Source: Eubacteriales bacterium
Lineage (GTDB): Bacteria > Bacillota > Clostridia > Oscillospirales > CAG-272
Length of the DNA: 64,000 bases
Direction: 5' to 3'
Assembly (NCBI GenBank): GCA_045645405.1
Contig: JAZRIQ010000004.1
Location: forward strand, 93,372 to 157,371
Positions 3,945 through 50,280 of the stretch are shown piece by piece (the first letter of the stretch is position 1; each line of letters starts with the position of its first letter). Below the pieces are notes generated by a model. It saw nothing but the letters and a program-made list of their open reading frames with translations. It ran no database searches and had not been told where the DNA came from. A program made the position numbers and the translations under genes.

Positions 3945-4958
3945 TTATTCTCCAAATCCATCAGGATTTTTCATTTGCCAATTAGCGGCATCCAAACACA
4001 TCTTGTCAATGTCATAAACAGCTTTCCAACCCAAAATTTCTGATGCCTTTGTCGGATCGGCATAGCATTCATCAATATCTCCGGGGCGTCTGTCGCAAAT
4101 TACGTATTTAATTTCATGTCCAATGGCTTTTTCAAAAGCGTGAATAACGTCAAGAACAGAATATCCGTTTCCTGTACCGATATTAAAGTGTTCTACACCT
4201 TTTACCTGTGCCGCTCTGTCAAGTGCCTTTAAATGAGCGTTAGCGAGGTCAACGACATGAATGTAATCACGTACTCCGGTTCCGTCGTGCGTTGCGTAGT
4301 CGCTGCCGTATACATTTACATGATCATACTTTCCGAAAGCAACCTTAGCAACGTAAGGTAATAGATTATTTGGAATTCCCTTGGGATCCTCGCCAATTAA
4401 ACCGCTCTCGTGAGCACCAATTGGATTAAAATATCTTAAAATAGAAATACTCCATTCAGGATCTGATACATATATATCTGAAAGTATTCTTTCTATCATC
4501 AGCTTAGTTTCACCGTAAGGATTTGTTGTGGATAAAGGAAAATTTTCATTTATCGGTACAGATTCGGGCTTGCCGTAAACGGTAGCAGATGAAGAAAATA
4601 CAATTTTTTTACAATTATGTTCAGACATAACCTTACATAGATTAAGAGTACCTGTAATGTTGTTGTGATAGTACCACATTGGTTTTGCTACGCTTTCACC
4701 AACTGCTTTTAAACCTGCAAAATGAATAACAGAATCAATGGTATTTTCATTAAATACTTTTTCGACATCTTCGATGTTTAATAAATCAGCTTTATAAAAT
4801 TTAACTTTCTTTCCTGTAATCGTTTTAATTCTATCAAGAACACATTCCTTGGAATTACATAGATTGTCAAGAACAATCACCTCATTACCATTATTCAAAA
4901 GCTGTACTACAGTGTGTGAGCCAATAAAGCCGGTTCCGCCTGTTACCAAAATAGACAT
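3945..4958 (-). CDS. galE: UDP-glucose 4-epimerase
   Basis: ILVTGGTGFIGSHT, HFAGLKAVGES, FSSSATVYG, PYGETK, LRYFNPIGAH, DGTGVRDYIHV. Confidence 0.97.
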   Translation of the reverse strand: MSILVTGGTGFIGSHTVVQLLNNGNEVIVLDNLCNSKECVLDRIKTITGKKVKFYKADLLNIEDVEKVFNENTIDSVIHFAGLKAVGESVAKPMWYYHNNITGTLNLCKVMSEHNCKKIVFSSSATVYGKPESVPINENFPLSTTNPYGETKLMIERILSDIYVSDPEWSISILRYFNPIGAHESGLIGEDPKGIPNNLLPYVAKVAFGKYDHVNVYGSDYATHDGTGVRDYIHVVDLANAHLKALDRAAQVKGVEHFNIGTGNGYSVLDVIHAFEKAIGHEIKYVICDRRPGDIDECYADPTKASEILGWKAVYDIDKMCLDAANWQMKNPDGFGE

Positions 4959-5035
4959 AATAAATCTCCTTAATTAACTATTACAAATATAATATACTAT
5001 TTATTAAAAAAAATCAAGTGATTTATTCAAATATG

Positions 5036-5089
5036 TTGACATTTATTATTATATATGCTAAAATAAGTGTATCAAATGAGACACTTATT
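5036..5089 (+). promoter_or_regulatory. sigmaA promoter with an overlapping 28-bp palindromic operator
   Basis: TTGACA(5036)-N17-TAAAAT(5059) with TG extension; AATAAGTGT-ATCAAATGAG-ACACTTATT palindrome at 5062-5089. Confidence 0.75.
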
Positions 5090-5105
5090 AAGAGCTGGTG
5101 TAATT

Positions 5106-5735
5106 ATGGATGTTAAGCAATTTTTGCAGAATAATTTGTTTCTTTTCAAAAATTTAACTAATACAGAAATTGATAAATTGCTGTCTTTTGAAGGAATAAA
5201 TATAAAACAATTTAATCAAGGAGAAATATTGCAAAGCAACAAAACTCCTTGCAATATCGGTGTTTTGGTTGAAGGTAAGGCTGTAATAAAATCAGGAAAC
5301 AATGGTGTTATTATCAGAAAACTAGTCAAAAATGACGTTTATGGGGCAGCAGGATTATTTGATACTCCAACGCATTTAACTTCCGTTGTTGCTGTAACGG
5401 ATTGCACCGTTATAACAATGAACAAAAATTACATTAAAAAATGTATTCAAGAAAATGAAAAAGTTTCCTTTAATTATATTGAATTTTTGGCAAAAAAAGT
5501 TAGTTTTTTGAATAAAAAAATCAACACCTATACTGCAAAGTGCGCTGAAGATAAGCTTTATGCATATCTATTGCAAATTTCTAATAATAACGAAGTTAAA
5601 TTAACTGTTGATATGAGTACAATTGCAAAGATGTTAGGAATCGGAAGGGCTTCTCTATATCGAGCGTTTGATAAGCTTGAGCAAGCAGGAATAATTATAA
5701 AAAATGATAAAATAATATTTTTAAACGAGGTATAA
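5106..5735 (+). CDS. Crp/Fnr family transcriptional regulator
   Basis: cNMP-binding-like beta-barrel followed by C-terminal HTH (IAKMLGIGRASLYRAF); ATG at 5106 follows a GGTG SD. Confidence 0.88.
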   Translation: MDVKQFLQNNLFLFKNLTNTEIDKLLSFEGINIKQFNQGEILQSNKTPCNIGVLVEGKAVIKSGNNGVIIRKLVKNDVYGAAGLFDTPTHLTSVVAVTDCTVITMNKNYIKKCIQENEKVSFNYIEFLAKKVSFLNKKINTYTAKCAEDKLYAYLLQISNNNEVKLTVDMSTIAKMLGIGRASLYRAFDKLEQAGIIIKNDKIIFLNEV

Positions 5736-43336: not shown

Positions 43337-44047
43337 ATGTTAATCAACGATATGAAGCATCAAAATATGCTTAATATTTTCAAATCTATAATAAATGGCA
43401 AAAACACTCTTAACGATATAGCCAAAGAAGTAGGTGTTTCAAAGGTTACTGCTTGCGAGCTTACAAAAATTCTTGTTGCAAAAAATTTAATAAAATTTGA
43501 AAATCCACCTCGAAATATACGAGGGAAGCGACCTAACATATATAGCGTTGTTAATGACTATCACTGTATGTATTTTGAGGAGCTTAGAAGAAGATTTTGC
43601 TGTATATCAATAGATATTAACGGAACGGTAATAGATAGATTTGACTGCATTTACAGAACTGACTTAAATAAGGAACAAAACTTAAAAATATTATACAAAA
43701 AATTTAGAAAGAGCCGAGCTTTCAGGAAATATTGTATAGATATTTTTGCTGTTTGTTCTGATGAAACTGCTAAATATTTGCCTAAAAATACGATAAGAGC
43801 AACAAAAGAAGAAATCATTTTAAATTGTCTTTCCGAGCCTGATAAGGTTATATTATTTCAACTACATAAAACACTTGCTCTATCCGTATATTCACATATT
43901 CATTATCCGCAAAAAGGTGTCGGAAATATTTTGGCAAACAAGGTTTTAAATATTGATAAAACATATCACTTTAGAAAAGAGCTTTATGACGGCTTATTTT
44001 TAGCAATGCAAAAGCATTCCTTAGATAAGCTGCTTGATTTAATATAA
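43337..44047 (+). CDS. Winged-helix regulator with ROK-type N-terminal HTH and a degenerate C-terminal domain
   Basis: MK..N...I....IA..VGVSKVT....L....LI....RGKRP resembles the XylR/NagC N-terminus; GAGGTG SD; no ROK sugar-binding motifs. Confidence 0.6.
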   Translation: MLINDMKHQNMLNIFKSIINGKNTLNDIAKEVGVSKVTACELTKILVAKNLIKFENPPRNIRGKRPNIYSVVNDYHCMYFEELRRRFCCISIDINGTVIDRFDCIYRTDLNKEQNLKILYKKFRKSRAFRKYCIDIFAVCSDETAKYLPKNTIRATKEEIILNCLSEPDKVILFQLHKTLALSVYSHIHYPQKGVGNILANKVLNIDKTYHFRKELYDGLFLAMQKHSLDKLLDLI

Positions 44048-45143
44048 CTAAAAGGCGTAAAATTCATTTTGCAAAATAAAAAAACAGAAACCTCTTATGG
44101 TAGTAACTCCATAGGAGGTTTTTAATTATGGCAAAAAACAACGGAAATAACTTATTTCAAGCTCCTTGATTTCCTCTGCATAGCCATCTACGGACATTCC
44201 TTTGCCATCTTTTGTTTGCCACCTTGCAATTATGCTCTTTGCTTCTGCCTTGCCATATTTATGCTCTATTTCGGTTTTAATGTGGTCAAGATTGAATTTT
44301 TAATGATATATTCTGCTACCTTTTCGGCAAACGCTTGTCTATCCTTGCCTTGTACTGTGTTAAGACCTTGCCATAGCATTTGTATTACTTCTTCTTTAGT
44401 CTTACCTTTTATGGTTACCTTTTCATCGGTAAACAAATCACTTAAGTCGGCAAGAATATCGTTGATTGCAATCTGCGTTTCCTTGCGAGAATGCACCTTA
44501 TCTCTTGTGTGATTAGCGACGATTTTCTTCATTTCGCCTTGTGATAGGCTGATTTGTGGATTGGATTTGAGGTTGAATTGTGTATTACTGCTAATGGTTT
44601 CTTTGCTATATTCTGCAACTGTTTCTATTTGCTCATCATAAAATGCAATAACAGACAAATCTCCCTCAAAACCATTGGCATATATAATTCCGTCATAACC
44701 TTTTTTGCTTAAAATTTTACGCAATTCGATTGATGCAGGAGAATTATATTCTTTCTCCATAAATCCATCTAGTTCTTTTAAGTGCAAAAGGTCTTGGTCG
44801 GTAATATAATCTAAAGAATTTAATTTATATGCACACGCAAAAACAAACCAATTCATTGGGTCATAGTCCAAATAAATAGGCTCTTCCATATTTATATAAA
44901 CTTCTTTTACAAAAACATCAGATGTGTTAGATTTAATTGCTTTTTCTTTTCCTTTAAATCTCAACTGTGCCGCTTCTAATGTTCCAAAATGGAAACCTAT
45001 ATCACCGTTTTTAAAAGTGTCAAATTTAGTTTCGGTAGAATGAAAAAAAGAAAGTAGTCTGCCTTCATCATCCTTCAATACGGTGTTTTTGAATTTTTCT
45101 TTTTGATTATTAGTAAGTTTTCTGCCTGCGGTGTCTAATAGTT

Positions 45144-45398
45144 TTAACGGTTTTCCTCGTAAATTTCGTGATATACTCTTTCTAAATCGTAATATATCGG
45201 ATTTGTTATCTTTGATTGTTCTGAACCATCCCGAATTTCCAACCCTCGTTTTTTCGCTTCCGCTACGTACATTTTGATGGTCTCCCATCCACCTAAACAA
45301 TTTTTCGGTATCATTACTTGATTGCCATAAAGTGTTGTTTCTTGTATCATTTCCGGGAACAACTCCTTGTCGTTCCAATACTTCGGTGTTTTTACCAT
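45144..45398 (-). CDS. Nested 84-aa hypothetical protein in the +1 frame inside the polyvalent-protein fragment
   Basis: AAGAGGT SD with GAGG 8 nt before ATG; own TTGAAA-N17-TATAAT promoter; globular-looking sequence; stop at the ART domain boundary. Confidence 0.65.
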   Translation of the reverse strand: MVKTPKYWNDKELFPEMIQETTLYGNQVMIPKNCLGGWETIKMYVAEAKKRGLEIRDGSEQSKITNPIYYDLERVYHEIYEENR

Positions 45399-45432
45399 TT
45401 TCAATACCTCTTAATTGATTATTTGCTTTTTT

Positions 45433-45461
45433 ATTATACTGTGTTTTTGCCTCATTTTCAA
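45433..45461 (-). promoter_or_regulatory. Intragenic sigmaA promoter driving the nested gene
   Basis: TTGAAA (45461-45456), 17-nt spacer, TATAAT (45438-45433). Confidence 0.65.
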
Positions 45462-45791
45462 CACCTTCTTGTGATTTTTCCTTAAGCTCTTTTTCCTTGC
45501 CTTGAATATACTTTGCTAATTGAACATTGCCAATTCGCTTTGATGCATCAAGCCATAGTTTTTCTGCTTTAAGTAATCGCTTTACTTCGGCATTGTTTTT
45601 ATCTACCTTTTGTAATGCTTGTTTTGTATTGAAAATCTTGTCAAATATCTTTTTAGCAAGTGATGTATCGCTTTCAATAATTCGGTCAATAAACTCCTCA
45701 CTACCGAGATAATACTCACTTGACCTTACGGTTAATTCACTTGCAAATAGCTCAAATATTTCTTGCTCTTTTTGTGTCAAATATAAGGTTA

Positions 45792-45827
45792 AAAGAACAG
45801 GAAAAGAGATTTCTCTTCCTGTTCTTT
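45792..45827. terminator. Hairpin downstream of polC
   Basis: AAAGAACAGGAA...TTCCTGTTCTTT stem. Confidence 0.7.
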
Positions 45828-45879
45828 GCTTTGTTCTTTTTATTGCAAACTAAATCCGTTCACTTTAATATACGCCTTT

Positions 45880-48800
45880 TTATAATAAGTCCATTATAGA
45901 AAGTTGATTTGTTTTTGCAAGATTATCAAACACGTGATTTGCTTCAAGAGTATCCATAACCGCTTTTGAAAGCATGGTTTTCTGTTGAAAATCTTCAACA
46001 GAAAAAATTTCGTTACTGTCTCTTGCTTCTTTGATTTTAATAGCTGCATTTTCTCCTATACCATCAATAGACGAAAACGGCATTCTGATTTTTCCGTCTT
46101 CAGGCAAAAATTTAAAGGAGTCAGATTTCATAAGATCAACAGGCAAAAACTCAATTCCTCTTGCCAGGCATTCATAAGCCATTTGAAGTGCAGTAATCAT
46201 ATCCTTCTCTTTTTGAGTAGCATCGTTTCCTTTTTCTTCAATTTCTGCAATTCTGTCAAGAACGCCGCGTTTTCCACGCTCAACCATAGAGGATTCAAAG
46301 CCTCCCGGAGCAACGCTTAAATACGCAGAATAGAAAACAAGAGGTAAATGAACCTTATACCAGCCAAGACGTATAGCTGAAATAACGTAAGCCGCTGCGT
46401 GAGCCTTCGGGAACATATATTTAATCTTTTTGCAAGAAGACATATACCATTCGGGAATTTTATTAGCTATCATAGCTTCTTCGTATTCCGGCTTTAATCC
46501 TTTACCCTTACGAACGTCTTCCATTATTTTAAATGCCATTCCTTTTTCAAGGCCGTGATATATCAAATAAAGCATTATGCTGTCACGAGTACCAACAACG
46601 TCGGAAATCGTACAAATTCCGTCCTTAATTAAGTCTTGTGCGTTTCCAAGCCAAACGTCAGTTCCGTGAGAAAGGCCTGAAATTTGAAGCAAGTCAGAGA
46701 AATTTTTCGGTTTAGCATCGACAAGCATTTGTTGAACAAATTTAGTGCCAAATTCCGGCAAACCGTAAGTACCAACCGAGCATTTTAAATCTTCAAGCAA
46801 ATTTTCCGAGCCTAACGGCTTTGTTGAAAGAAACAGTTCATAGACCTCAGGGTCATTCATTGGCACGTCCAATACTGACGTGTTTGAATACGTCTCAAGC
46901 ATTTTATACTTTGTCGGAATATCGTGACCAAGCTCATCAAGCTTAAGAAGTGTATCGTGAAGATATGAAAAAGTAAAATGTGTAGTTATAATATTTGAAT
47001 CCGCGTCATCAGCAGGATGTTGAACAGGACAAAAATCGTATATTTCATACTCTTTAGGAACAACAACAATTCCACCTGGATGTTGTCCTGTTGTTCTTTT
47101 AACACCGGTACACAAGCCAGCTAATCGCTTCATTTCAGCGCTATTTACATTTAACTGGCGCTCTTCCATATATTTTAAGATATAGCCAATAGCAGTTTTT
47201 TCAGCAACTTCACCGATTGTTCCTGCTCTGAATACGTTTTCAGCACCGAAAAGATCCTCAGTATATTTATGAATTTTTCCTTGAACGTCACCGGAGAAAT
47301 TCAAGTCAATATCGGGAGACTTATCACCTTTAAAGCCCAAAAAGGTTTCAAAAGGGATATCATGACCGTCTTGTATCATCTTAGTATCACAATGAGGACA
47401 CTGTTTATCGGGTAAGTCAAATCCTGAACCAACACTACCGTCAGTAATAAACTCACTATATCTGCAATTTGGACATCTATAATGAGGCTGTAATGGATTT
47501 ACCTCTGAAATTCCCGCCATGGTTGCAACAAATGATGAACCAACAGAGCCTCTTGAACCAACTAAATAGCCCAGCTTTTCACTTTGATAAACAAGCTTTT
47601 GAGCAATCATATAAAGAACTGCAAAACCGTTTGCGATAATCGAGGTTAATTCTTTATCAAGTCTTTGTGAAACAATTTCAGGAATTACGCCCTCAAACGC
47701 ATACATATTTCTTGCACGTTCCCAACACATATTTTGAAGGTCCTCCTCTGCTCCGTCCATTTTAGGAGTAAAGGTTCCCTCCGGGAAAGGTCTGATATTA
47801 TCATACTCAATCATATCAGCGATTTTATTTGTGTTTGTAACTACAACCTCAAATGCTTTTTCTTCACCTAAATATTCAAATTCTTTAAGCATTTCTTCAG
47901 TTGTTCGGAAATAAATACCGGTATCTCTGTCAGCATCCTTGAATTTTTGGCTGGCTAACAAAATTTTACGACCGATTTCATCTTCTTTGTTTAGAAAATG
48001 TGCGTCGCAGGTAGCCACAACGGGCTTTCCAAGCTTTTCTCCCAATTCAACAATTTTTTTATTAAATTTGATTAAATCCTCTAATGTTGCCTTGTTTTCA
48101 TGAACAAGGAACATATTATTACAAATAGGTTGAATTTCGAGATAATCGTAAAAATCAGCAATTGATTCTATTTCAGATTCACTTTTATTATCTAAAATTG
48201 CCTTATAAAGCTCACCGGACTCACAGGCAGAGCCTATAATCAGACCTTCTCTAAGCTCATTTAAGCGTGTTTTAGGAATTCTCGGTGTTCTTTTAAAGTA
48301 TTTCAAAAAGCTGTCAGAAATTAGCTTATATAAGTTTTTAAGGCCTGTTTTATTCTTAACCAACAAAATTTGATGGTGTGTCGGGAGCTTTAAAGGGTCA
48401 ACGTTAGCACTCATTGCCTGTATCATCTTTTCAGTATCCTCAACACCCTCGCCTTTAAGCTTTTCAAACATCGCCGAAAGAATATTTGCAAGCATTTCAG
48501 CATCGTCACAAGCTCTATGATGGTTAAAATCACCAAGATTAAAGTATTCTGCCAAAACATCCAGCTTATGCTTTTTCAAATCCGGATTAGTAAATTTCGA
48601 AAGCGCTACCGTATCAAGATAGGTAAATTCAAAATTCATACCGTTTTCTTCACATGCTTTTCTTATAAAGCCTGTATCGAAGCCCGCATTATGCGCAACT
48701 AAAATTCTATTGCCCGCAAAAGCAAAAAATTCGGGTAAAACCTCGCTAATATCCCTTGCATCAGCAACCATTTCATTTGTGATACCTGTCAATTCAATAA

Positions 48801-50280
48801 TGTTATCAGGAATTTCAATATGAGGATTTACAAAGGTATCATATCTTGCAATTATCTCTCCTTTTTTGACGATAACCGCACCTATTTCGGTAATTTTATC
48901 ATTTTGGAAGGATAAGCCCGTGGTTTCAATATCAAATACACAATATTCATCATCAAATGATGCGTTCTGCGTCCCGAATATCGCTTTGGCTGTATCGTCA
49001 ACAAAATATGCTTCCATACCGTAAATCAATTTAACCCCTGCTTTTTCAGCAGCAACCATAGCAGGTGGGAAGCCTTGGACGTTTCCGTGGTCGGTAATAG
49101 CTACGGTACGAAGCCCCCATTCCTTCACACGCTTTACTAAAGCTGCAGGGTCAATAATTGCATCCTTTGCAGACATCATTGTATGACAATGAAGCTCTAC
49201 TCGTTTATTTTCCGCATTATCTTTACGTTCTTTTTTAGAAATCTTAAGAACGTCTGTATATGAAACAAAAATTTCTTTATCCTTATTGAATTCGTCAATC
49301 TTTATATTACCGCGTATTGCATAAGAACTTCCCATTTGAAAATACGACATTTCTTCATCACGCTTGTCCGCAGAAACAGAAATTTGAATATAAATAGAAG
49401 AATCATTATCCGTAAGTCCCACCTTGATTATGGAAAGGTGACCGCGCTTTGATTTTACCGACTTTTCTTGAATATCGAAAACAGTTCCCAAAAAGCACAC
49501 GCTATGCATTCCGTTTTCAAGCTTTCTTATGGGAATTATATTTGAGATTTCAAACAAGCCCCCCGCAACGTACTCAGGATTAGAAATAATAAAGGTTGTC
49601 GGACCAACCTTAATTTCTCCGTTGTTTGAATTATCAGCAGAAATATCTTCTTGGAAAAACGAGTTTGCTTTCGCAAAAGACGCGCGCAGATTTTGCGCCT
49701 GTTCTGTTTTTTCCGCACTTTTTGAAACATCCTTTGCATGTTGCTCCAACGCTCTGCGTAAAATATTCATTTTTTCATTTTCAAAAGCTTCTATGTTTCT
49801 TTTGTAATCTTCTCTTTGCTCAATAGCAAAACGAACATTTACATTAAATTCATTACTAACTATTTTTGACATCACGCTTGCGGTATCTGCACCGTCAAGC
49901 AGATCTATTCCGCCCTGTAAAAAAGGAACCTTTATAACAACTGTTCCATTATCATCGGTTGAAATACTGTAGTCCTCAAAAAATCCCCTTGAAACAACTC
50001 CCTGGCGATACGTTTCAAGAATTAAATCGTCTATATACTCCAATGAATACAGCTCCGGAGAATATTTAGGATATATAACAAAGTGATTCAGTCGATACGC
50101 TTCGCTGATTTCTCCTTCAATTCTATATAAAATTCTTTTAGGAATAATAAGGGAGGATGATATATCAACCTCCATCATTCTTAATTCTTTATCAACTCTA
50201 ATACCTAATACTTCCGCCTGCATATAGCTATCAAGCTCATTAGCAGGCGAATATTTAGGAAATCTTTCATTTAATTTCAT
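45880..50280 (-). CDS. polC: DNA polymerase III PolC-type
   Basis: RVELHCHT PHP domain, inserted 3'-5' exonuclease (VFDIETTG, HNAGFD, HHRACDD), GSRGSVGSS, KSPDIDLNF, YMFPKAHAAAY. Confidence 0.98.
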   Translation of the reverse strand: MKLNERFPKYSPANELDSYMQAEVLGIRVDKELRMMEVDISSSLIIPKRILYRIEGEISEAYRLNHFVIYPKYSPELYSLEYIDDLILETYRQGVVSRGFFEDYSISTDDNGTVVIKVPFLQGGIDLLDGADTASVMSKIVSNEFNVNVRFAIEQREDYKRNIEAFENEKMNILRRALEQHAKDVSKSAEKTEQAQNLRASFAKANSFFQEDISADNSNNGEIKVGPTTFIISNPEYVAGGLFEISNIIPIRKLENGMHSVCFLGTVFDIQEKSVKSKRGHLSIIKVGLTDNDSSIYIQISVSADKRDEEMSYFQMGSSYAIRGNIKIDEFNKDKEIFVSYTDVLKISKKERKDNAENKRVELHCHTMMSAKDAIIDPAALVKRVKEWGLRTVAITDHGNVQGFPPAMVAAEKAGVKLIYGMEAYFVDDTAKAIFGTQNASFDDEYCVFDIETTGLSFQNDKITEIGAVIVKKGEIIARYDTFVNPHIEIPDNIIELTGITNEMVADARDISEVLPEFFAFAGNRILVAHNAGFDTGFIRKACEENGMNFEFTYLDTVALSKFTNPDLKKHKLDVLAEYFNLGDFNHHRACDDAEMLANILSAMFEKLKGEGVEDTEKMIQAMSANVDPLKLPTHHQILLVKNKTGLKNLYKLISDSFLKYFKRTPRIPKTRLNELREGLIIGSACESGELYKAILDNKSESEIESIADFYDYLEIQPICNNMFLVHENKATLEDLIKFNKKIVELGEKLGKPVVATCDAHFLNKEDEIGRKILLASQKFKDADRDTGIYFRTTEEMLKEFEYLGEEKAFEVVVTNTNKIADMIEYDNIRPFPEGTFTPKMDGAEEDLQNMCWERARNMYAFEGVIPEIVSQRLDKELTSIIANGFAVLYMIAQKLVYQSEKLGYLVGSRGSVGSSFVATMAGISEVNPLQPHYRCPNCRYSEFITDGSVGSGFDLPDKQCPHCDTKMIQDGHDIPFETFLGFKGDKSPDIDLNFSGDVQGKIHKYTEDLFGAENVFRAGTIGEVAEKTAIGYILKYMEERQLNVNSAEMKRLAGLCTGVKRTTGQHPGGIVVVPKEYEIYDFCPVQHPADDADSNIITTHFTFSYLHDTLLKLDELGHDIPTKYKMLETYSNTSVLDVPMNDPEVYELFLSTKPLGSENLLEDLKCSVGTYGLPEFGTKFVQQMLVDAKPKNFSDLLQISGLSHGTDVWLGNAQDLIKDGICTISDVVGTRDSIMLYLIYHGLEKGMAFKIMEDVRKGKGLKPEYEEAMIANKIPEWYMSSCKKIKYMFPKAHAAAYVISAIRLGWYKVHLPLVFYSAYLSVAPGGFESSMVERGKRGVLDRIAEIEEKGNDATQKEKDMITALQMAYECLARGIEFLPVDLMKSDSFKFLPEDGKIRMPFSSIDGIGENAAIKIKEARDSNEIFSVEDFQQKTMLSKAVMDTLEANHVFDNLAKTNQLSIMDLL

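Follow-up and report, generated by a model that had tools for sequence, protein, structure and literature searches.

Can the linker ahead of an ADP-ribosyltransferase (ART) domain in a large effector-type protein hide a second gene, and could that gene encode the antidote to the domain? The question is raised by a locus in a 64,000-nucleotide stretch of DNA from a Eubacteriales bacterium (assembly GCA_045645405.1, contig JAZRIQ010000004.1, positions 93,372 to 157,371; hereafter the window), in which an 84-codon open reading frame (ORF), the nested ORF, lies within a longer ORF of polyvalent-protein type, the outer ORF, directly upstream of its ART domain. A sequence-only reading of the window had proposed that this is a separately promoted gene for a neutralising protein. 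Our own reading of the minus strand matched that description base for base, with the promoter-like site, the Shine–Dalgarno (SD) motif, the ATG and the 84 codons all in place:

45456..45461, minus strand: −35-like hexamer TTGAAA; 11/12 matches to TTGACA-N17-TATAAT
45433..45438, minus strand: −10 hexamer TATAAT, 17 nt from TTGAAA; read as Tyr-Asn in the outer frame
45406..45412, minus strand: SD-like AAGAGGT, 7 nt before the ATG
45144..45398, minus strand: nested gene; 84 sense codons, then TAA; offset +1 to the outer ORF (44266-45780)

The ATG occupies 45398-45396 and the TAA 45146-45144, and the product starts with MVKTPKYW and ends with EIYEENR. The stop lies three codons 5′ of the D in DTAGRKLT, where the ART domain starts, and the two ORFs form an embedded same-strand pair, with 45144-45398 wholly inside 44266-45780 at an offset of +1. 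Comparison with relatives, described below, indicates that this is almost certainly a real, selected gene, overprinted at +1 on the linker that leads to the ART domain.

The length of the nested ORF is weak, not decisive, evidence. The genome has 886 open frames of at least 300 codons (469,649 codons in all), and these contain 31 ATG-initiated ORFs of at least 84 codons in the +1 frame and 4 in the +2 frame. An SD-like motif precedes 6 of these 35, namely the nested ORF and five that translate to low-complexity sequence. When synonymous codons were resampled with the outer protein of the window held fixed, the +1 frame stayed open in 2.5% of 5,000 trials. Among 13 related outer ORFs we also observed further +1 ATG-ORFs of 58–92 codons that look by eye like ordinary proteins (L015:722-940, L021:2879-3070, L022:3826-4002, L022:8155-8433, L016:4737-4916 and L019:4404-4607), each preceded by an SD-like motif except L019:4404. 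No two of the other +1 ORFs in these 13 outer ORFs were similar to each other at E ≤ 1e-3.

To judge from its alignments, the nested product is a member of an unannotated protein family of about 85 amino acids (aa). A HMMER scan of 1.84 billion representatives returned 32 proteins at E ≤ 1e-3, 5 of them at ≤ 1e-10, and the best was 71% identical. Most members are 78–97 aa long and align from residue 1–2 to residue 81–83, so that the N-terminal Met and the C terminus coincide. The family alignment has the invariants P5, W8, P31, W38, V75 and E78 and the motifs KTPxYW, TAYGNxVxIPK, W and VFxEIYEE. A profile search of a 5.8-billion-protein set found 28 members, 18 of which lie on contigs shorter than 1.5 kb. 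Such a bias would be expected if gene callers picked up the small ORF only on contigs that cut the big one short, and it agrees with the proposal that standard callers miss this gene.

We found no match to the family in Pfam, NCBIfam, PHROGs or PADLOC. A profile search of PDB sequences gave a best E of 0.5, and a search of the ESM Atlas through the homologue P0059 gave inconsistent matches, with a predicted local distance difference test (pLDDT) value of 0.55 for the Atlas model. The GNxVxIPK motif resembles the MazE/AbrB/SpoVT motif GNSxxVRIPK. This likeness was rejected at the sequence level: hhalign against nine PF04014 proteins of relatives gave a probability of 0.4%, and there was no Pfam match. 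Three longer proteins, P0020, P0032 and P0034 (523–990 aa), match residues ~23–61 of the nested protein in 5–8 repeated stretches; a repeat family without kinship to it, but with a YGxxVxIPxxxxxGW pattern like its own, is the probable explanation. A tandem two-domain form, P0013, was not found in genome_contigs.

The nested arrangement recurs in relatives. A pattern scan of genome_contigs, with one genome per species, yielded 12 loci, all of them in Clostridia-type metagenome-assembled genomes. In these 12/12 loci and in L011, L056 and L058, that is, in 15/15 loci other than the window, a longer ORF on the same strand encloses the homologue, which reads in its +1 frame. The metagenome scan contributed only L056 and a duplicate of L021. 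The homologous outer ORFs range from 85 codons (L011, cut by the contig end) to 2,795 codons, and across loci they encode LPD3, LPD23, PBECR3, DUF6782 and ART-PolyVal domains. Two loci carry the small gene twice: L019 has tandem copies (4725-4970 and 5001-5237, 68% identical) in one giant ORF, and L058 has copies at 3995-4252 and 4838-5095 that are 89% identical and 843 nt apart, with an ART domain after the first.

Conservation in the overlap follows the inner frame. Nucleotide identity at inner codon positions 1/2/3 was.58/.62/.43, the third position of the outer frame being the most conserved one, and the ART domain, which served as a control, gave.58/.70/.38 at positions 1/2/3 of the outer codons. 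The inner-frame periodicity was kept in 300/300 bootstraps (17 instances, 0 reversals). Amino-acid identity over the same columns was.41 in the inner frame versus.28 in the outer frame. A frame-specific dN/dS comparison of homologous linkers, which the sequence-only reading had offered as a check, came out in favour of the inner frame: NG86 medians in the overlap were 0.32 (inner) and 1.16 (outer), and the inner value was lower in 68/68 finite pairs (136 in total, the others being saturated).

Both frames are open in 17/17 complete instances, more than chance would allow. Resampling of synonymous codons with each outer protein fixed left the +1 frame open with a probability of 0.002–0.24 per locus; as the loci are homologous, per-locus values of this kind are not independent, which tempers them. 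When synonymous codons were resampled with the inner protein fixed, the outer frame was open in at most 0.16% of 5,000 trials per locus, yet it is actually open in 13/13. Consistent with this, T at the third inner position ahead of codons beginning with AA, AG or GA, which would create an outer stop, occurred at 0/492 sites versus 211/907 elsewhere. These patterns indicate that amino-acid selection acts on the inner frame and that the outer frame is merely kept stop-free, so that translation of the large protein can reach the ART domain. The overlap is true dual coding, pairing a selected small protein with a passive stop-free linker. The inner products are 40% hydrophobic, whereas the outer reading is 26% hydrophobic and 45% R/G/S/N.

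The expression signals are also shared with the homologues. The ATG stands at the homologous N terminus in 17/17 instances, and an SD-like motif lies 3–20 nt upstream in 15/16 scanned instances. The best −35/−10 match in the 80 nt upstream scored at least 9/12 in 12/16 instances (a score reached by 13.9% of 80-nt windows taken at random from these loci) and at least 10/12 in 7/16 (null 2%). A perfect TTGACA-N17-TATAAT is present in L014 and L021 and, by eye, in the L011 fragment. Wherever the top site scores at least 9/12, the −10 box lies 20–38 nt ahead of the ATG. It occurs in two phases of the outer frame, read either as Y-N or as D-I-I, G-I-M or S-I-V, which argues that the nucleotides rather than the outer residues are conserved. 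In the tandem pair of L019, a good site precedes the first ORF alone, as in a two-gene operon. In the window, a consensus scan ranked the promoter-like site (11/12) as the top scorer in 44000-46100, although promoter-like sites as such are not enriched there (11 versus 7.6, standard deviation 3.1, in shuffles). We infer a putative sigma-70-type promoter inside the outer coding sequence.

Three accounts of the overlap dispense with a separate functional gene. In one, the open +1 frame is a chance effect of a T-poor coding strand, and its apparent conservation is a by-product of conservation in the outer frame. The general frequency of +1 ORFs fits this account (beyond the genome-wide count, the 13 related outer ORFs hold 40 of at least 55 codons in the +1 frame versus 1 in the +2 frame). 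The frame-specific dN/dS, the codon periodicity that follows the inner frame and the end-to-end alignment of the family with conserved start and stop make this account extremely improbable. In another, a programmed frameshift would carry ribosomes from the upstream outer frame into the inner frame, or from the inner frame back into the ART domain. The nested stop just ahead of the ART domain would suit such an event, as would P0024, which fuses outer-frame sequence in frame to the nested ORF and, compared by eye with L020 (2945-2990), seems to lack a single A of an A-run. Slippage could account for this difference in P0024, as could natural variation or an error in sequencing. We consider a frameshift very improbable given the ATG at the homologous N terminus throughout, the SD-like motif in 15/16 instances, a final 15 codons free of in-register X XXY YYZ heptamers (0/17 instances), an A-run before the ATG that is not conserved in other loci, and orphan copies of the small gene with just 25–39 outer codons upstream. 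In the third account, the locus would be a frameshifted pseudogene whose original frame survives as the inner one; we rejected it, since no homologue has a stop in the outer frame and codon choice actively keeps that frame open.

The position of the nested ORF suggests a link to the domain that follows:

44599..45138, minus strand: ART-PolyVal domain of a distinct sub-clade, in the outer frame; DTAGRxLS, FHxT, GDIGFHFGT, EVYxN and GYDGIIY; begins 3 codons past the nested stop

Pfam assigned residues 237–389 of the outer protein to ART-PolyVal (PF18760; 38.2 bits against a cut-off of 31.2, E = 3.1e-09). ART domains that follow the nested ORF form a sub-clade that scored 238–271 bits (263 for the window) with a hidden Markov model (HMM) built from the same eight domains, and typical ART-PolyVal domains were unmatched by this model. 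In its GFHFG motif, H stands where Y was expected. Five residues, H33, H50, Y81, D149 and E158, are conserved in 12/12 members of the sub-clade. Iyer et al. 2017 (PMC5512222) describe the active site of this ART family as H in strand 1, Y in strand 2 and D in strand 5; H33, Y81 and D149, invariant in 12/12, would correspond to these, the strand assignment being our own from sequence.

A sub-clade ART lies directly downstream of the nested ORF in 11/16 loci (one truncated), and the nested stop is 3–6 codons 5′ of D-x-x-G-R in 11/11 loci that retain the motif. At the remaining loci the small gene stands among housekeeping genes with 25–39 outer codons upstream (the orphans L012, L014 and L023), sits in an intact giant ORF with a typical ART upstream and other sequence downstream (L019), or is cut by the contig end (L011).

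For comparison we also drew 21 ART-PolyVal loci from the class, in which 25 of 399 genomes were positive. Four of these loci (L037, L044, L040 and L041) carry sub-clade members. Before the sister ARTs of L040 (1274-1459, plus strand) and L041 (reverse strand), at the same site, we found a different +1 ORF of 61–62 aa, here called family 2. It has TTGCA(G/A)-N17-TATAAT, an SD motif and an ATG, and its product carries the motif MxxKW(I/V)T...KPGSGYT...YTLxIVK. Codon periodicity follows its inner frame: identity between the two loci was.59/.77/.43 at inner codon positions and.54 (inner) versus.27 (outer) at the amino-acid level. No similarity between family 2 and the family of the nested protein (family 1) was detectable with hhalign (probability 0.2%). 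No further homologue of family 2 was found among called proteins, and 2/22 genomes of its family carry it, those of L040 and L041.

The nested protein probably binds the ART domain. A complex model of the window's ART domain with the nested protein scored 0.64 (runs 0.64, 0.62 and 0.70), whereas the best of three controls scored 0.00, so that the co-folding put forward in the sequence-only reading speaks for binding. Runs shared at least 87% of contacts, and the pLDDT of the partner was at least 84. In a benchmark, this score was reached by 58/80 solved complexes and by 2/110 mismatched pairs, counts that serve only as a rough calibration for a model made with custom alignments (8 rows for the ART domain, 46 for the nested protein). 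The predicted interface comprises ART residues 59–68, 92–104, 127 and 156–157 and nested residues 5–13, 33–53 and 62–72.

One mechanism would accommodate these observations. With the internal promoter and the SD/ATG, production of the small protein would not depend on the large gene. The small protein would bind the adjacent ART domain and hold the enzyme inactive in the encoding cell, in the role of an antidote or immunity subunit, and the whole set of promoter, antidote and ART would travel as a single cassette. After truncation of the effector, as beside polC in the window, the small gene could persist as an orphan immunity gene. We put the chance that the nested protein acts as an inhibitor or immunity protein at about even. 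As an explanation of the locus as a whole, an overprinted ART-binding antidote is the best that we have, with the balance for and against it level. A broader proposal is that overprinted antidotes are a general design that has gone unnoticed in the effector cassettes of polyvalent proteins, the effector being inert in its carrier and freed on delivery, with orphans serving as host immunity to incoming ART effectors, in effect a defence against an anti-defence weapon. It draws on at least two mutually dissimilar small families that precede sister ARTs in the +1 frame, each with a sigma-70-type promoter, and we regard it as speculative and rather doubtful.

Several observations weigh against an antidote. 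Its support is in silico, consisting of the predicted complex, the adjacency and the orphan copies, which make immunity plausible. The presumed catalytic residues H33, H50 and D149 lie outside the named interface residues, and the rough calibration noted above tempers the complex score. The predicted interface does not separate an inhibitor from a chaperone or cofactor. Promoter-like scores reach just 7–8/12 in 4/16 instances, and neither copy in L019 has a sub-clade ART downstream. Family 1 was present in 0/21 of the sampled ART-PolyVal loci, whose +1 frames are stop-rich, so an extension of the arrangement to ART-PolyVal at large finds no support. Even within the sub-clade, L037 and L044 have no nested ORF and instead have an ordinary in-frame helical region upstream. 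Together with the typical ARTs, these two loci suggest that an antidote is not a general need of ART-PolyVal.

These points bear on two other functions for the small protein. It may bind the ART domain in a positive role, as a chaperone, as an adaptor for export or packaging, or as a subunit that activates or targets the domain. Such a role, which we consider unlikely, would fit the adjacency and the predicted complex equally well, and also the absence of the presumed catalytic residues from the named interface and the two sub-clade ARTs that do without the protein; the orphans L012, L014 and L023, which lack an ART, and the two copies in L019 without a cognate ART fit protection better. An independent constitutive-type promoter is typical of antidotes in toxin–antitoxin systems, and in this respect too the nested gene resembles an antidote more than a positive partner. 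Alternatively, the gene may be real yet have no functional tie to the ART domain; its product could be a small regulator or an anti-defence factor, say, and the gene a mere passenger of a permissive, disordered linker. None of the family, fold or motif comparisons assigned a function to it, and L019 and the orphans show that the gene persists without a sub-clade ART. The constant spacing of 3–6 codons to the ART start in all 11 motif-keeping loci, an undetectably related nested ORF at the same site before sister ARTs, and the complex score set against its controls make an unrelated function unlikely.

The outer ORF of the window is itself a remnant behind polC:

44266..45780, minus strand: outer ORF, N-terminally truncated polyvalent remnant; 504 aa from TTG, 527 codons open
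45440..45780, minus strand: first (upstream) module of the remnant; matches an internal stretch of P0004 at 81% identity as far as the Q-Y-N codons, which form the TATAAT box
44266..44580, minus strand: last (C-terminal) module of the remnant; 69% identity with P0006
45792..45827, minus strand: hairpin resembling an intrinsic terminator, 16 bp followed by UUUUAA; lies after the polC stop and before the outer ORF
45880..50280, minus strand: polC, directly upstream of the remnant; a housekeeping neighbour

From its translation, which shows PolC motifs, we take 45880-50280 to be polC (DNA polymerase III alpha subunit of the Gram-positive type). The N-terminal residues of the outer ORF align internally within the 457-aa P0004 (81% identity over 23% of the query), and its last ~100 residues resemble P0006. 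There is no ATG within its first ~150 codons and no SD motif ahead of its TTG. The hairpin that precedes it has a folding energy of −21.6 kcal/mol (z = −5.26; 0/200 shuffles fold equally well) and was not among the sites listed by the consensus scan. The nested ORF is thus, as had been stated, the only gene of the remnant with intact signals. The window as a whole is a low-GC chromosome stretch (GC 0.29–0.39), and the neighbours named by Pfam include ispG, ispD, ispF, rpe, acyl carrier protein and a BlaI-type repressor.

The remnant consists of three modules, and the middle one, with the promoter-like site, the nested ORF and the ART domain, behaves as one cassette, with homology breakpoints marking its limits. 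This agrees with the earlier suggestion that toxin-type domain and nested gene move together. Contigs of relatives from gut sequencing runs (three of RNA type, one of DNA) match only 45427-45770 and 44266-44580, with none over the nested ORF; these metagenome and metatranscriptome contigs diverge from the window at 45454 and ~44580. Covering only the flanking modules of relatives, they carry no information on transcription of the nested ORF. Among 24 public runs, those with any of the stretch contained at most 0.14 of its sampled words.

Module junctions share, by eye, a short motif, (D/K)(I/x)R(F/Y)S(L) or QFNLK, seen at ~44568-44585 in the window and in P0003, P0004, P0006, P0007 and L017, and this motif could be a marker of linkers or of processing sites. 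A further ART-PolyVal domain (63.8 bits) is encoded elsewhere in this genome, by a 1,057-codon ORF (G000:C4:55779-56795, locus L034), ~37 kb before the start of the window. That ORF also has a copy of the C-terminal module of the remnant (31% identity to residues 411–499), and no nested family-1 ORF was found in it.

The remnant and its nested gene are sparsely distributed among close relatives. The nested ORF was found in 0/36 genomes of the same genus, and these 36 also held no close copy of the remnant (best 38% over residues 4–136). The outer protein had no close relative in genome_contigs or viral_contigs. A phage origin, as the sequence-only reading had assumed, finds no support: the nested protein was unmatched in 50,697 phage records, 72,556 plasmids and viral_contigs, and a scan of 29 flanking ORFs detected no phage or conjugation gene, all Pfam-named ones being cellular (EF-Tu, tRNA synthetase, YpeB, DctM and others). 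Of the features of a polyvalent protein, the homologous outer ORFs show the form of a multi-domain giant; the window copy is a C-terminal remnant of 504–527 codons. Giant polyvalent-type ORFs adjoin housekeeping genes in L013, L020 (37 nt past tuf) and L022 (past ypeB), as the remnant does past polC, which is an unexplained preference or a bias.

Embedded genes of this geometry have precedents. The Rz1 gene of the phage lambda spanins is embedded in Rz on the same strand in the +1 frame, its product binds that of Rz, and it is not known to have a promoter of its own. Like Rz1, the nested gene is a small gene wholly inside a larger one, on the same strand at +1, with partners that bind (here in a predicted complex). 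Rz1 and Rz are both structural parts of one lysis machine, whereas the nested gene carries an SD motif and a promoter-like site, its outer reading serves as a passive effector linker and the presumed role is neutralisation. In Bacillus subtilis, comS, of ~46 codons, lies within srfAB, is co-transcribed with srfA and acts in the competence pathway. As in the comS–srfAB pair (PMC12915044, for example), a giant multi-module Firmicute gene holds a short ORF in another frame, but the nested protein belongs to a conserved family of 78–86 aa that adjoins, and is predicted to bind, a domain of the host protein. Enterobacterial same-strand nested small ORFs such as GndA within gnd (PMC11230408) are likewise alternative-frame ORFs inside an annotated gene and missed by annotation. 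Unlike such very short, lineage-restricted peptides, the nested gene encodes an 84-aa family with dozens of diverged members, purifying selection and a promoter-like site.

Toxin biology offers the other precedent. Iyer et al. 2017 (PMC5512222) define polyvalent proteins of phages and conjugative elements and this ART family, and group the latter with Tox-ART-HYD2 of polymorphic toxins and toxin–antitoxin systems; the terms 'overlapping', 'internal promoter' and 'linker' are absent from that paper. The homologous outer ORFs resemble polyvalent proteins in being giant mosaics of the five domains listed above. They differ in lacking phage or conjugation genes among their 29 flanking ORFs, and the copy in the window is truncated. 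As in ART toxin–immunity and polymorphic-toxin cassettes, a small partner gene stands beside a toxin-type domain, the two are exchanged jointly and orphan partners occur. Known immunity genes are separate ORFs, usually downstream, whereas this partner is upstream and fully overprinted on the effector coding sequence, and its neutralising role is presumed. No description of a nested-antidote arrangement was found in the literature searched, a scope that excluded subscription journals and supplements; the name ART-PolyVal turned up there in one work besides that of Iyer et al. The nested gene can be placed with two known kinds, embedded genes such as Rz1 and comS on the one hand and toxin–immunity cassettes on the other.

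Long conserved same-strand overlaps are rare in bacteria and usually doubted, and the comparative proof here is unusually clean. It adds a protein family that is absent from annotation, indicates that the 'linkers' of giant effectors can hide genes and provides a search rule for such hidden genes, namely a switch in the frame of codon periodicity within linkers. The arrangement suggests a way to carry a toxin-type enzyme domain safely within a multi-effector protein. If the immunity reading is true, the nested protein would give a direct handle on the role of ART-PolyVal, a question so far without an experimental answer.

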